A stretch of 50,975 nucleotides of DNA from a phage: the sequence record PZ871100.1. One strand, written 5' to 3'. A program made the translations under genes and the position numbers. This document shows, piece by piece, positions 19,815 to 46,008 of this stretch. Under the pieces are notes generated by a model. The model was not told the origin of the DNA. It searched no databases and was given only the letters and a program-made list of their open reading frames with translations. The first letter of the stretch is position 1. Each line of letters begins with the position of its first letter.

Positions 19815-20456
19815 ATGGCTGAATATGGAGCAATGTTATCATTATCAAATGGGAATCCATTTGTTACACCAAAATCAACGCCATTTTGCTTATATGGCAA
19901 GTACATTTATTCATCTTCTGGTACTTCTGCATATCATAGCGCAAGCGCAAATATACCAGTAAATCAATCTTATCCATGTATGGCATTTATAAAAACAACA
20001 AACACACAACAGCCAACCGCATTAATAGCTTACAGGAACGGTGGCAACATTTATGTAAACGGAGGCAATCCATACGGGCAATCATTTACAATGACTGTTT
20101 ATATATTTGCCATATTCCCTCAAACTCTACCAAAATATGGCATGGCTATATGGGATGCAAGCGGCAAGTTAGTTTTAACTAATGAAAGCAGGGTGCTAAC
20201 AGACCTTGTGACAATTGGTACTCCTGGTTCTTCAGGGGGAACTAATATAGATCAGACATTATCTGGTTCTTATGCCGTTTGCCCATCAAGGCTTGGTGCG
20301 GTTATAGGTATGGGTGCGTCTGACATATATACATCATGCAGGTATGATGGTTCAAGCACAAGGATAGGTGCGGCAAGGACAACTCCAGGAACAGGTTCTA
20401 TAACGAATAACGGAAATTCAATAATTGCCATCAAGACTGATATTTACGACCAATAA
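19815..20456 (+). CDS. hypothetical tail-associated protein (paralogous N-terminus, internal repeat GMAIWDASGK)
   Basis: ATG 19815; MAEYG start and second copy of the WDA-GK segment. Confidence 0.4.
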   Translation: MAEYGAMLSLSNGNPFVTPKSTPFCLYGKYIYSSSGTSAYHSASANIPVNQSYPCMAFIKTTNTQQPTALIAYRNGGNIYVNGGNPYGQSFTMTVYIFAIFPQTLPKYGMAIWDASGKLVLTNESRVLTDLVTIGTPGSSGGTNIDQTLSGSYAVCPSRLGAVIGMGASDIYTSCRYDGSSTRIGAARTTPGTGSITNNGNSIIAIKTDIYDQ

Positions 20457-31527: not shown

Positions 31528-31567
31528 CACTTTTTGTTAAAACAGGCGCGAAGGATTGCGCCATAAT
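31524..31567 (+). promoter_or_regulatory. conserved-box promoter-like unit upstream of Dam-like gene
   Basis: Box ATAGCACTTTTTGTTAAAAC 31524-31543, inverted repeat GGCGCG...CGCGCC in spacer, CATAAT 31562-31567; upstream stop TAG inside box. Confidence 0.6.
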
Positions 31568-41510: not shown

Positions 41511-41756
41511 TCATTGTTGATCGTGTTTAACGGCAATCAGAACATCACAGGACTCGTTAATGAATTTAGCCATGCGCTTATCATCACCAACAGGTATTAG
41601 CGCATTAAACTCGCGTTTGCTACTGAATACCGTCACTTTATGAAATGATGCGAACGGCATCGACGGGAACTCTACTGTTTGCGTCAGTATACGCAATCCC
41701 ATCTTTTTGGCCCTTACTTGGGCCTCAGCGAGTTCAAAATCCACTTCATTAATCAT
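41511..41756 (-). CDS. hypothetical protein
   Basis: 81 aa; ATGA overlap with upstream gene. Confidence 0.4.
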   Translation of the reverse strand: MINEVDFELAEAQVRAKKMGLRILTQTVEFPSMPFASFHKVTVFSSKREFNALIPVGDDKRMAKFINESCDVLIAVKHDQQ

Positions 41757-42025
41757 TTCTTGATCTCCTCAGCAATAAACTTCAGGACTTTGCGCAAAAA
41801 CACTTCATTATTGATGGTCGCTGGCAATTCTTCTTTTACTTCTTGCGGCAGGTAAACGTTGCCATGCCAGGTTAAGCAATCGTAGTTGATACGATAAGAG
41901 CAAAGCCACTCGCAATCGTTATCCGCTTCCCAAATGCAGAGTTGCAGAACATCGCCGAAATTCTCAACAGTCAGGTCCAGACCATGACGCTTGGCGAAAT
42001 TGAAAGTGGTTTTGCTGATGTTCAT
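41753..42025 (-). CDS. hypothetical protein
   Basis: 90 aa; AGGAG RBS; promoter unit and conserved leader upstream. Confidence 0.45.
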   Translation of the reverse strand: MNISKTTFNFAKRHGLDLTVENFGDVLQLCIWEADNDCEWLCSYRINYDCLTWHGNVYLPQEVKEELPATINNEVFLRKVLKFIAEEIKK

Positions 42026-42774: not shown

Positions 42775-43236
42775 ATGACCATGACAAGCAAGGAATTTTG
42801 CGATATGTTGCGAGTTAATGCAGCCTCACTAGCTAACGGGGATGTTAGCGAACTGCAAATCAAGGAGCTTGACTTGCAATGTAATATTGCGCCGGAAGAC
42901 TTGAGGAAAATTAACGCCTCATACATCCGAACGATTATGAATCGAACGCCGGAGGTGAAAGCCGTTGGCGTGGTGAAGGTTGAACGCGTTCGAGGCGATG
43001 CTGACATTCCTGATTGTTATCGCGTAACAATTAACCAGAATCCAAAGCGCCGCTTGCTGACAGATGAAGAACTGCCAAAACTTGAAAGTAAGTGGCGAGC
43101 AAAGTTTATTGCTCAACTGCTTAAAACACAGCCGCGAATCAGCGATCTGGAAGGTGAGCGCCTGGAAGGTGCGGCAATCGCACTTGAGCGAATGAATGAA
43201 ATGCTTAACGATATGGTAAAGATGGAGGATGAATAA
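42775..43236 (+). CDS. hypothetical protein (first gene after noncoding region B)
   Basis: ATG 42775 with AGGAG RBS; 153 aa. Confidence 0.45.
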   Translation: MTMTSKEFCDMLRVNAASLANGDVSELQIKELDLQCNIAPEDLRKINASYIRTIMNRTPEVKAVGVVKVERVRGDADIPDCYRVTINQNPKRRLLTDEELPKLESKWRAKFIAQLLKTQPRISDLEGERLEGAAIALERMNEMLNDMVKMEDE

Positions 43237-43496
43237 TGACTAAGGCATTAATTGGAGTTTTGATTGCAATCGCTACCCTGACCGGATGCGAAAAGGCATC
43301 GGAATCAACGGTTGTAGCAGGCGTGGAGTCAGATTTCAAAGTCGGTCGCCTGTTCACTGTTGACGGATGCACAGCATACAGATTCTATGATAACGGTCGC
43401 GCGATCTATTACACCAATTGCAAAGGCGCAACGAATAGCACGCGCAACAGCGGAAAGTACATAATGCACCAGCAAGTCACAACAGATATTGAATAG
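43236..43496 (+). CDS. small lipoprotein (second Cor/Llp-like candidate)
   Basis: 86 aa; signal peptide and lipobox LTGC; GGAGG RBS; TAATG overlap. Confidence 0.5.
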   Translation: MTKALIGVLIAIATLTGCEKASESTVVAGVESDFKVGRLFTVDGCTAYRFYDNGRAIYYTNCKGATNSTRNSGKYIMHQQVTTDIE

Positions 43497-43770: not shown

Positions 43771-43956
43771 ATGAAAACGAAATTAGTCCATAAATCAGAA
43801 ATCAAGATCGGCGATACTGTGATTCACAACGGCGAGCTTAGAACGGTTGGCAAAGAGTCAATAAGCCACGATGAATTTATGGGGATCTTGTTGTTCGGTG
43901 ACTCTTATCGTCTTGGTTATAAAATGGTTGAGCTTGTGGAAGAGGTAAAATTCTAA
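43771..43956 (+). CDS. hypothetical protein
   Basis: 61 aa; RBS AGGTGA. Confidence 0.4.
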   Translation: MKTKLVHKSEIKIGDTVIHNGELRTVGKESISHDEFMGILLFGDSYRLGYKMVELVEEVKF

Positions 43957-44000
43957 ATAGCACTTTTTGTTAAAACTTAAAAACGATAACCAGGCATAAT
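43957..44000 (+). promoter_or_regulatory. conserved-box promoter-like unit
   Basis: Box 43957-43976, 18-nt spacer, CATAAT 43995-44000. Confidence 0.55.
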
Positions 44001-44054
44001 AAATCACATAGGGCGGCACGGCGTCGCCCGGTAAACCAATCAGGAGAAAGCACC

Positions 44055-44945
44055 ATGTTAAAACTTGCTGACATTAAATTCCCGATCACCTTCGAATCTC
44101 GCGGCGTTGGTCATTTCATGTTTACCGATGAGAAGACATGCACTAAGTTTAACGAATACGGAAGTCCAAACGCTTCAACAATGGAGGTTGAACACTTCAT
44201 TGAAGCGCACAATAAACACTACAACTCACTCAGAGACTACGGTTACGCAATGCCAGGATACACATGTTTTCACTACAAGCCATATAAGGGTCAGGTGTTA
44301 CCAGTGCGCTCACCGGAACGCGCAGAGATTCCGATGGTCAATATGAAAACGTGCGACTATAAAAAATTGTGGTGCTTAAGCGTGGATAACATCAAGTATC
44401 CGATCGTATTCCGCACGGTTGGTAACTCAACGATTCGCTATACGTCACCAGACAACGGCGTTTATAGCGATGGTCAGAAATCAGAGTTGAAAGTTGATTT
44501 CTTTGTCAATGGTCACAACAAATTCAATCCACACAATGAAGAAGATAAGGTGTACTACGTGGAAGATATTACAAAACACTTGTTTGGAGAAACACCATTC
44601 GGCTACGGGAAGACGTCAATTCAACAAATCATTGGCGAGGAGATCCACAAGGCAGCCGTTGAAATGAAAGCGCCTGGAGGCTGGCGTATTGATAAGAGCG
44701 CCTTTGCTTATCAAGAAATCGTAACGCAGGGCGCTATTGAAGACATGCCAGTTGCCGCCACGCTAAAAGGCGTTCAGCTTGATGACGGCGTGTGGTATGA
44801 ATTAACAGCTAAGCCAAAGACGATCGAGATTCATGATGATGTTGTTATTCTTCTGCTTCATTACGGTAGCGCAAAAAACCGTGCCGTTGCTGGCGAGATT
44901 AGCATCAAGCGCGGAACGATGGTTAAGTGGAAGGTGAAAGTGTAA
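44055..44945 (+). CDS. hypothetical protein with internal tandem duplication
   Basis: 296 aa; two similar ~100-aa segments (IKFPITFESRGVG / IKYPIVFRTVGNS; EHFIEAHNKH / DFFVNGHNKF); AGGAG RBS. Confidence 0.5.
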   Translation: MLKLADIKFPITFESRGVGHFMFTDEKTCTKFNEYGSPNASTMEVEHFIEAHNKHYNSLRDYGYAMPGYTCFHYKPYKGQVLPVRSPERAEIPMVNMKTCDYKKLWCLSVDNIKYPIVFRTVGNSTIRYTSPDNGVYSDGQKSELKVDFFVNGHNKFNPHNEEDKVYYVEDITKHLFGETPFGYGKTSIQQIIGEEIHKAAVEMKAPGGWRIDKSAFAYQEIVTQGAIEDMPVAATLKGVQLDDGVWYELTAKPKTIEIHDDVVILLLHYGSAKNRAVAGEISIKRGTMVKWKVKV

Positions 44946-44988
44946 ATAGCACGAATTGTTAAAACTCAAATGTGGGGCCAGGTATAAT
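44946..44988 (+). promoter_or_regulatory. conserved-box promoter-like unit (variant box ATAGCACGAATTGTTAAAAC)
   Basis: Box 44946-44965, TATAAT 44983-44988 inside inverted repeat GGCC...GGCC. Confidence 0.55.
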
Positions 44989-45018
44989 GGCCTCACTTTC
45001 AATGAAGGAGATAAAACT

Positions 45019-45249
45019 ATGTACATTAACAAGAAGATGAAATGCATTTCCGTTAACTATGGTTGCGCTGGCATGTTCAAGCCTGGCGAAATCTATATGG
45101 CGCAAAAGTTGAAATCATCAACCGGATCCTTTTACGTTAGTAATAGTAAGGGGCATCGCATGTTCCTGAACGGTGGTGAAGGTACTAATGTTATGGCACA
45201 CGCTATGGTAATTGCTGAATTTGAGGAAGTGAAAGATGAAAACAAATAA
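45019..45249 (+). CDS. hypothetical protein
   Basis: ATG 45019 with AAGGAG RBS after promoter unit. Confidence 0.4.
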   Translation: MYINKKMKCISVNYGCAGMFKPGEIYMAQKLKSSTGSFYVSNSKGHRMFLNGGEGTNVMAHAMVIAEFEEVKDENK

Positions 45250-45457
45250 GCGCGTCAAGCACAGGTTTACTGATAACCACGGCGACGCGATCGATGTATA
45301 CAAGTTCGGCGATCGCGTTTTTATTGACGGCACGTTTGAAGGTGGGAGCAGTCCGGATTTTAGGTCGATACTCACCGTTGACCAGGTGCGAAAGCTGGCG
45401 GATAAGTTAAATGATCTGGCAGATGAAATCGAATACAAGCAAATTCATTTTAATTGA
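45236..45457 (+). CDS. hypothetical protein
   Basis: 73 aa; GAGGAAG RBS. Confidence 0.4.
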   Translation: MKTNKRVKHRFTDNHGDAIDVYKFGDRVFIDGTFEGGSSPDFRSILTVDQVRKLADKLNDLADEIEYKQIHFN

Positions 45458-45468
45458 TAGGTTTGATA

Positions 45469-46008
45469 ATGAAAAAATACGAATTTGAACTTTGGGGCAG
45501 CAAATACCATTTTTCAACGAGCAAGCCGATTGTTATCGTTGACCTGGACGGAACGTTATCAGACGGAACGCATCGCTTACACCTTCTTCCGACAGAAGAT
45601 TTGCACCTTACAGAAAGCTGGTCTGAGTTCAATAAGGCGGCTGTTGGCGATTCGCCGATTAAGAGCACGGTTGCAGTGGTTAACGGTTTGTGGATGTCAG
45701 GATTTGCCATCGTTATCCTGACCGGACGCAGCGATGAAGTGATGGAGGACACCTGCAAATGGCTTAACGAAAACGGCATCAAGTACGATGCGTTAATCAT
45801 GCGCCGCAAGGAAGACAATCGCAAAGACACAATAATCAAAGAGGAAGTCTTGCGCGCTATCGGACTGGAAAACATTGTGTGCGCTTTTGATGATTCTCCG
45901 AACGTGGTTAAGCACTTCCGCAGCCTGGGAATCACAACCTATCAGGTAACGGAATACGACAAGCCACATAATCATATCCAATCGCATGGCGTGGAGGAAT
46001 TGAAATGA
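45469..46008 (+). CDS. HAD-superfamily phosphatase (nucleotidase or polynucleotide 3-phosphatase-like)
   Basis: Motif I IVIVDLDGTL (DxDxT), later ILTGR and FDDSPN motifs. Confidence 0.6.
   Translation: MKKYEFELWGSKYHFSTSKPIVIVDLDGTLSDGTHRLHLLPTEDLHLTESWSEFNKAAVGDSPIKSTVAVVNGLWMSGFAIVILTGRSDEVMEDTCKWLNENGIKYDALIMRRKEDNRKDTIIKEEVLRAIGLENIVCAFDDSPNVVKHFRSLGITTYQVTEYDKPHNHIQSHGVEELK

Follow-up and report, generated by a model that had tools for sequence, protein, structure and literature searches.

The gene and its setting

The stretch of phage DNA analysed here, called the window below, is the 50,975 nucleotide (nt) sequence of record PZ871100.1, and the subject of this report is one gene from its array of small genes, an open reading frame (ORF) that starts with ATG and encodes a protein of 296 amino acids (aa) followed by a stop codon. 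An earlier, sequence-only reading had described the product as an ORFan with an internal tandem duplication of two similar segments of about 100 aa; the coordinates and length that it gave agree exactly with the ORF listing of the window, and the strings that it quoted from the two segments are present at residues 7–57 and 113–160. We present evidence that the protein belongs to a modular A(n)-B family and that it consists of two alpha/beta modules of about 65 aa (A1 and A2) followed by a predicted barrel module (B), with flexible linkers between them in the manner of beads on a string, and in this account of its architecture and evolution we have high confidence. The features of the gene and its upstream region are collected in Table 1.

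Table 1. Gene, protein modules and upstream elements in the window, with the ratio of non-synonymous to synonymous substitution rates (dN/dS; pooled Nei–Gojobori, 11 genomes). HMM, hidden Markov model; pLDDT, predicted local distance difference test
Feature	Position	Strand	dN/dS	Remarks
21-nt direct repeat AAATAGCACTTTTTGTTAAAA	43955..43975	+		Conserved intergenic repeat of T1-like phages; upstream part of promoter-like unit
-10-like hexamer CATAAT	43995..44000	+		Same distance from repeat as in other units; kept in 6/7 relatives
GC-rich hairpin GGGCGGC-ACGGC-GTCGCCC	44011..44029	+		In 5' leader; in minimum free energy and centroid folds, z-score only -0.83
Shine–Dalgarno AGGAG	44042..44046	+		8 nt before ATG; conserved in relatives
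Coding sequence	44055..44945	+		PHROG 7116 member, counterpart of phage T1 ORF70
Module A1, residues 1–65	44055..44249	+	0.27	First alpha/beta copy; HMM and PHROG 7116 matches; pLDDT 73–87
A1 loop, residues 28–42			0.56	
A1 minus loop			0.17	
Linker 1, residues 66–107	44250..44375	+	0.11	Predicted disordered, pLDDT < 50 at 66–104; lowest dN/dS of the five segments
Module A2, residues 108–175	44376..44579	+	0.15	Second copy, common 'HNxxNPxN' subtype
Linker 2, residues 176–219	44580..44711	+	0.31	pLDDT < 50 at 179–218; predicted helix 188–203, low confidence overall
Module B, residues 220–296	44712..44942	+	0.21	Predicted seven-stranded SH3-like small beta-barrel; the family's most widely conserved module

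The window is a Drexlerviridae (Tempevirinae) genome of the T1-like siphovirus type, and its length is what a complete genome of that kind would have. About 2 kb around the gene is 88–96% identical to the corresponding DNA of many Escherichia and Shigella phages (Drexlerviridae, Tempevirinae; Hanrivervirus and Warwickvirus), and the close relatives at this stretch include vojen, egaa, tiwna, pSf-1 and SECphi27, the homologue in the latter being HOS92_gp30 of the RefSeq record. The whole protein matches phrog_7116 with an E value of 4.7e-76, residues 107–295 spanning positions 1–173 of the 173 in the profile, and comparison of the annotated regions of T1, vojen, EcoS-95, phiE31-2 and SECphi27 places the gene at the same location as T1 ORF70, in the rightward early array of small genes that precedes pnk. 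We identify it as the Tempevirinae version of T1 ORF70 (PHROG 7116), conserved across Drexlerviridae.

The description of the gene as an ORFan cannot be retained. A word-indexed search returned 321 homologous proteins at E ≤ 1e-3, the best 120 of which are 86–96% identical and 295–297 aa long, and tblastn matched at least 235 phage records from Escherichia, Shigella, Salmonella, Citrobacter, Cronobacter and Vibrio phages. The family is nevertheless narrow, being essentially restricted to Drexlerviridae yet common there. Indeed, an exhaustive search of 1.84 billion representatives yielded only 42 clusters at 50% identity, and all 32 IMG/VR loci lie on contigs of 9.7–52 kb, 27 of them on contigs of 45–52 kb, the size of a complete Drexlerviridae genome. 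A single peptide pattern, which is of limited sensitivity, turned up no relative of B when run against 185,579 bacterial and archaeal genomes, and the window has no paralogue of A or B. For scale, a related collection counts 522 Drexlerviridae (PMC13164509).

Between 12 and 18 records named 'Campylobacter phage' (host Campylobacter jejuni; MG065673, MG065680, MG065685, MG065687 and others) also carry the gene, at about 84% protein identity. Most of these records are unannotated, and they look like T1-like coliphage sequences filed under a Campylobacter host.

The internal repeat

Four tests place the similarity between the two parts of the protein beyond chance, so that the repeat stands on formal alignment. 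Smith–Waterman alignment of residues 2–54 with residues 107–156 gave a score of 64, whereas shuffled sequences gave 27±4.7 and none of the 300 shuffles reached 64. An HMM that drew on single-copy relatives only (14 of them, each represented by its N-terminal 72 residues), with the query left out, matched the protein twice, at residues 1–55 (independent E value 4.5e-15) and at residues 108–171 (3.5e-23). The first 107 residues alone matched PHROG 7116 positions 1–65, through residues 1–66, with an E value of 4e-11; in the whole-protein match the start of this profile corresponds to the second copy, because it is residues 107–295 that cover the profile from its first position to its last. Comparison of first-half and second-half alignments with hhalign gave a probability of 96.9% and an E value of 1.5e-10, the confidently aligned columns being confined to roughly the first 60. 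By these alignments the repeat is a genuine homologous domain duplication.

The extent of the repeat is smaller than had been proposed. The homologous core covers about 55–68 aa, with 28% identity over 53 aa, and it is only the repeat period, at 106 residues, that approaches the suggested length of about 100 aa. The stretches that follow the two cores are not alike, residues 66–107 against 176–219 giving a score of 17 against 17.7±3.4, and no repeat was detectable between the two copies at the DNA level. Given the low identity and the lack of a DNA-level repeat, the copies are old. The AlphaFold2 model of the full protein gives both copies the same order of elements, namely three short strands, an 11-residue helix and then a strand; the predicted elements are strands 11–15, 19–23 and 29–32, helix 45–55 and strand 62–65 in A1, and strands 117–120, 126–129 and 135–137 and helix 147–157 in A2.

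Anatomy of the protein

AlphaFold2, run with a 31-sequence alignment, predicts three confident domains that coincide with A1, A2 and B (residues 1–65, 108–175 and 220–296), separated by stretches of low confidence. The whole-model predicted template modelling score is 0.33, and the model therefore suggests no fixed packing between the domains; A2 modelled alone reached a pLDDT of 92.5. A1 is of a subtype recognizable by 'HN-HY...DYGYAMPG' and contains a hypervariable loop at residues 30–40. A2 holds a vestige of the family N-terminus, CLSVDNIKYPIVF as against MLKLxDIKFPITF. Linker 2 is missing or much shorter in T1-type A-B proteins. In B the motifs IEDMPxGA, RIEVHDD and GEINIKRGT can be recognized; residues H260, D261 and D262 are variable across the family, whereas the E229/M231/P232 motif, E258, E281 and R286 are near-invariant. 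The isoelectric point (pI) is 7.2 for the whole protein, 6.0 for A1, 5.8 for A2 and 6.9 for B, and this near-neutral charge argues against both a DNA mimic and a typical nucleic-acid binder.

The suggestion that the product contains no known motif was borne out. Searches of Pfam, NCBIfam, PADLOC and PDB sequences with the whole protein, the A profile, the B profile and the fusion partners described below gave no significant match, with no PADLOC defence family at E ≤ 1, and Foldseek with the full model found nothing in the PDB at E < 0.1. The A fold apparently has no match and may be a new small fold. A zinc site in linker 1, formed by C71, H73, C100 and C107, was considered and rejected, as these Cys and His residues are conserved neither in the more distant A-A-B homologue P0122 nor in P0123.

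The protein is under purifying selection throughout, in the first A copy as in the second, with dN/dS between 0.11 and 0.31 in each of the five segments. Variability is concentrated in the A1 loop: residues 30–40 (window 44142–44174) have the highest column entropy among 118 close homologues and occur in at least two allelic forms, TKFNEYGSPNAS and HKVDLYSYKREPS, in homologues that are otherwise 86–96% identical. At the other extreme stands linker 1, whose mean column entropy in the 118 homologues, 0.16, is the lowest. This linker may perhaps contain a binding motif or fold on a partner.

Modules among relatives

When representatives and 43 fetched loci were scanned with HMMs of the two modules, A and B proved to be evolutionarily separable, and related phages carry between zero and three A modules at the locus. 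The arrangement A-B occurs at 24 loci, including T1 ORF70, Shfl1, JMPW1 and TLS-like phages, and A-A-B at 10 loci in addition to the window. Also A-A-B, and very divergent, are P0144, P0146 and P0141/P0148, whose duplications may be independent. BabyEgg encodes an A-A-A-B protein of 398 aa in which the third copy is inserted within linker 1, and B stands alone, as a protein of 66–97 aa, in NBD2_04, P0149, P0152, P0153 and P0159. One record (P0121, 375 aa) was left out of this survey because it looks like a frameshifted, tandemly mis-assembled sequence.

The modules have also been joined to other partners. Unrelated N-terminal modules are fused to B in P0132, P0157 and P0162. At two loci from divergent relatives (L041, 2346–3300; L011, 17–1202) A is fused to an unrelated C-terminal domain that matches PHROGs 24212 and 2831, both of unknown function, and at both of them a stand-alone B protein of 96–97 aa is encoded one or two genes downstream of the fusion, a Rosetta-stone arrangement that points to a functional link between A and B. 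For P0161, whose C-terminal domain was considered as MazG-like, Pfam, NCBIfam and PDB offered no support and only the same two PHROGs were matched, so that this assignment was dropped. In Vibrio phage Vc1 (L006) a match to B at 2001–2201 straddles the annotated boundary of gp51 and gp52, so that gp52 appears to have been given a wrong start. By eye, the module that precedes B in P0132 (PHROG 9595) resembles Vc1 gp51, both beginning MK.(V/I)K(V/-)(R/-)LL..GGY; if the two are indeed alike, what would be separate genes in Vc1 would be one fused gene in P0132.

The modules differ in their conservation, B being 72% identical to the B of T1 and the A modules 30–37% identical to its A. The phiE31-2 gene carries a different B allele and is otherwise near-identical, and in tonnikala a frameshift splits the gene into a truncated A1-A2 part and B, which could reflect either a sequencing error or an ability of the modules to work apart. 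The differences between the modules in identity and allele are domain-level phage mosaicism of an ordinary kind, domain shuffling and duplication being commonplace in phage accessory genes.

Copy number and origin of the two A modules

A change in copy number can be followed at the nucleotide level in JLBYU16 (Warwickvirus), which encodes an A-B protein of 190 aa. Nucleotides 784–839 of JLBYU16 are 100% identical to window 44038–44093, i.e. the ribosome-binding site (RBS) and the first 13 codons of A1, while nucleotides 817–1728 match window 44389–45300, which takes in A2 from codon 112 and what follows, at 88.6%. The IKFPITF codons are common to both matches, whose offsets differ by 318 nt in frame, exactly one repeat period. 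A junction within the IK(F/Y)PITF codons common to the copies bears the mark of inter-repeat recombination, and the event could have been a collapse or an expansion.

How the two copies arose is a separate question. The sequence-only reading spoke of a tandem duplication, and the presence of two homologous copies is not in doubt; duplication within the gene is only one possible origin, given their 28% identity and their separate placement in a neighbour-joining tree. This tree covers 35 A modules, is without support values and has little resolution, the modules being only about 65 aa long. In it the neighbours of A1 are the single A modules of P0123 (A1-B, 210 aa), P0151 and P0161, all of which end in 'HN-HY...DY-Y-MP', and A2 groups with the second copy of P0122 among the common 'HNxxNPxN' modules. 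The alternative is that a diverged gene of A1 type was fused to, or recombined with, an A-B gene of A2 type, by mosaic shuffling between co-infecting T1-like phages. Besides the separate placement of A1 and A2, an origin of this kind would account for the extension HY...DY-Y-MP, which is found in A1-type modules and not in A2, for the vestigial N-terminus of A2, where HMM position 1 (Met) aligns to residue 107 as if by read-through into a formerly independent A-B gene, for the position of the third BabyEgg copy within linker 1, and for the lack of DNA-level likeness between the copies. However, short modules resolve the tree poorly, an old duplication in situ, with A1 later exported to other genes, would look alike, and the JLBYU16 junction shows that the copies do recombine in situ. 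From the tree placement and the A2 vestige, we therefore regard fusion or recombination as being as plausible as in-gene duplication, a serious possibility that falls a little short of probable.

The upstream regulatory unit and neighbouring genes

The 21-nt repeat before the gene is invariant in seven relatives, and the whole unit of which it forms part is almost invariant in the seven. At least 10 near-identical units occur in the window, each directed at a downstream start codon, and they share the layout AATAGCACTTTTTGTTAAAAC, followed about 17–22 nt later by a hexamer like (C/T)ATAAT and often by CATCGAAACGA. Leftward units lie at 20171, 35810, 40704, 41210 and 42087, and rightward units at 31534, 32575, 43503, 43967, 44956 and 48819. 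As leftward units extend to 42.1 kb and rightward units begin at 43.5 kb, early transcription appears to diverge at about 42.1–43.5 kb. The same element, with consensus aaATAGCACnnnTTGnTAAAA, has been described at 21 sites in phage TLS and is said to be present also in T1 and Rtp; that study left the choice between promoter, UP element and enhancer undecided (PMC11447400).

A scan for consensus promoters passed over the CATAAT hexamer because its spacer falls outside 16–18 nt. The leader hairpin is conserved in sequence in the relatives without compensatory changes and is absent from the other promoter-like units; it is not a terminator, since no T-run follows it. The proposal that the gene has its own promoter unit and a strong RBS thus holds to the extent that a promoter-like unit and AGGAG are present and conserved, the unit being a putative promoter.

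An 18-nt block containing the RBS, ACCAATCAGGAGAAAGCA (window 44036–44053), also precedes a leftward 90-aa ORF at 41753..42025 (- strand), so that the two genes with this block have more in common than the repeat element. The first 11 nt of the gene, ATGTTAAAACT (44055–44065), are one base off the repeat core TTGTTAAAACT. We considered whether the gene start is itself a conserved DNA signal and rejected this, as T1-type genes begin ATGTTAAAATTA or ATGCTGAAATTA and the resemblance is probably coincidence.

Three neighbours deserve mention. Downstream, pnk lies at 45454–46008, about 0.5 kb from the gene, and is named through annotated relatives as encoding a polynucleotide kinase/phosphatase. 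Upstream, an ORF at 43236–43496 encodes an 86-aa putative lipoprotein with DUF4884, likewise named through annotated relatives, and the 61-aa ORF immediately before the gene (43771–43956) bears the name 'caprin-2 domain protein' in JLBYU26 alone, apparently an over-annotation.

Possible function

Our preferred overall explanation is that the product is an accessory protein, conserved in T1-like phages and made early, of adaptor type and built of A-A-B modules, an explanation that we place just on the probable side. The observations that fit an accessory binding or adaptor protein are a constant predicted barrel with variable tethered A modules, the occurrence of the modules as separate neighbouring genes, incomplete spread within one virulent family, and a position in the early array. 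Early expression is deduced from the gene's own unit of repeat, -10-like hexamer and Shine–Dalgarno sequence in the rightward small-gene array beside pnk, and the non-enzymatic reading from the fact that nothing in the sequence or the models points to catalysis.

Our working model, which in its functional mechanism of binding or adaptor action early in infection is tentative and in our view rather doubtful, is that the protein would be cytoplasmic and non-enzymatic, would be made early from its own host-type promoter unit, and would act by binding or as an adaptor. B would supply the constant function, by docking onto a conserved macromolecule or by self-assembly; many small beta-barrels self-assemble. 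The A modules would be the recognition units, their number (valency) and the A1 loop 30–40 tuning the binding. The target may be a host factor in takeover or immunity, or some host or phage macromolecule early in infection.

Several considerations weigh against this preferred explanation. The 21-nt repeat is only a candidate promoter element (PMC11447400), and the function proposed has been deduced from architecture alone. The elevated dN/dS of the A1 loop amounts to relaxed constraint and not to demonstrated positive selection, and linker 1 is the most constrained segment though predicted to be disordered, for which the adaptor model gives no reason. The single-copy form of JLBYU16, moreover, could be the ancestral state and not the product of repeat collapse.

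A bolder version of the adaptor idea would make the A(n)-B proteins an undescribed class of modular early effectors, active in counter-defence or host takeover, in which A is a new fold whose valency of zero to three changes through recombination at IK(F/Y)PITF and whose loop sets specificity, and B is a ring-forming or docking barrel that displays A multivalently; we think it unlikely that this holds as a whole. We give equally low odds to a role in RNA or ribosome binding, by which the protein would modulate translation or RNA metabolism soon after infection, B then behaving as do the KOW, Sm or translation-protein SH3 barrels that it resembles. The weak fold neighbours of B point in that direction, as does the place of the gene, in all relatives examined, a few genes upstream of pnk, which encodes an RNA/DNA end-repair enzyme. 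However, in an early array so tightly packed the nearness of pnk counts for little, B and the whole protein, with the pI values given above, lack the basic surface typical of RNA binders, and no sequence relationship connects B to the KOW, Sm or translation SH3 families. A structural role in the virion is barely credible: it derives from a single GenBank record (PP988008.1), in which the phiE31-2 homologue gp051 is named 'tail fiber protein', whereas all other records examined say hypothetical. The gene lies amid small early genes by pnk, far from the structural genes in approximately the first 20 kb of the window. No structural family in Pfam or PHROG was matched, and the family has single-domain forms of 66–97 aa and tolerates a split copy.

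Whatever the fate of the adaptor explanation, the analysis resolves one 'hypothetical protein' into three bounded modules, of which A and B occur also as separate neighbouring genes. T1-like phages are common laboratory contaminants and also model phages (SECphi27 and the BASEL Drexlerviridae Bas01–13), and their early small-gene arrays are almost wholly uncharacterized. Natural variants with zero, one, two or three A modules form an allelic series and provide ready constructs for functional tests. The points of greatest interest are the apparently unmatched A fold, the series of zero to three A modules with a mapped junction, and the constrained 'disordered' linker.

Comparison with known systems

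A natural candidate for comparison is Gp54 of the Drexlerviridae phage Bas11, a non-essential early protein of 66 aa that is described as a beta-barrel and that triggers the CapRelSJ46 defence (PMC11578894). The window belongs to that phage family too, and Gp54 is near in size to the stand-alone B proteins. However, the pattern of its residues W43 and W53 (PMC11578894) does not fit B, and no significant match appeared in the PDB chain library with the full protein or the B profile, or among the 50 best Foldseek matches in the PDB, where the presence of the Gp54 structure is unconfirmed. In SECphi27 the Gp54 homologue is gp19 in the numbering of that paper, as against HOS92_gp30 for the homologue of the window protein; the numberings may differ, and this is no proof of distinct loci. 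With no homology detected by sequence or Foldseek, we did not retain Gp54 as a homologue. The triggers of the RAZR defence, a recombinase and the portal protein, were likewise set aside. A paper on daunorubicin and 'mutual destruction' and a preprint on transposon mutagenesis of phages contain nothing on the gene.

Other small barrels offer likeness of a looser kind. For KanT1, a stand-alone SH3-clan protein, assigned by InterPro to DUF7244, has been described in the Drexlerviridae lysis module, next to the pinholin and endolysin genes and in some genomes only (PMC13164509). It is a small SH3-type barrel of T1-like phages, as B is predicted to be, but DUF7244 belongs to the lysis module and B to the early array, and an identification of the window protein as DUF7244 was rejected, there being no Pfam match for the protein or for B at E ≤ 1–10. 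The translation-type SH3-like barrels (domain I of EF-P/eIF5A, the uL2 C-terminal domain, Sm/LSm and the Pelota N-domain) are like B in predicted fold only.

The closest known counterpart is T1 ORF70 itself (CPTT1_008, AAP49930.1, 161 aa), which the window gene resembles in synteny, in its PHROG 7116 match and in the N-terminus MLKLxDIxFP. In T1 and the other Tunavirinae examined the protein has 161–168 aa and a single A module; to this plan the window protein adds A1, a 42-aa linker that is conserved, and extra length in the linker that precedes B.

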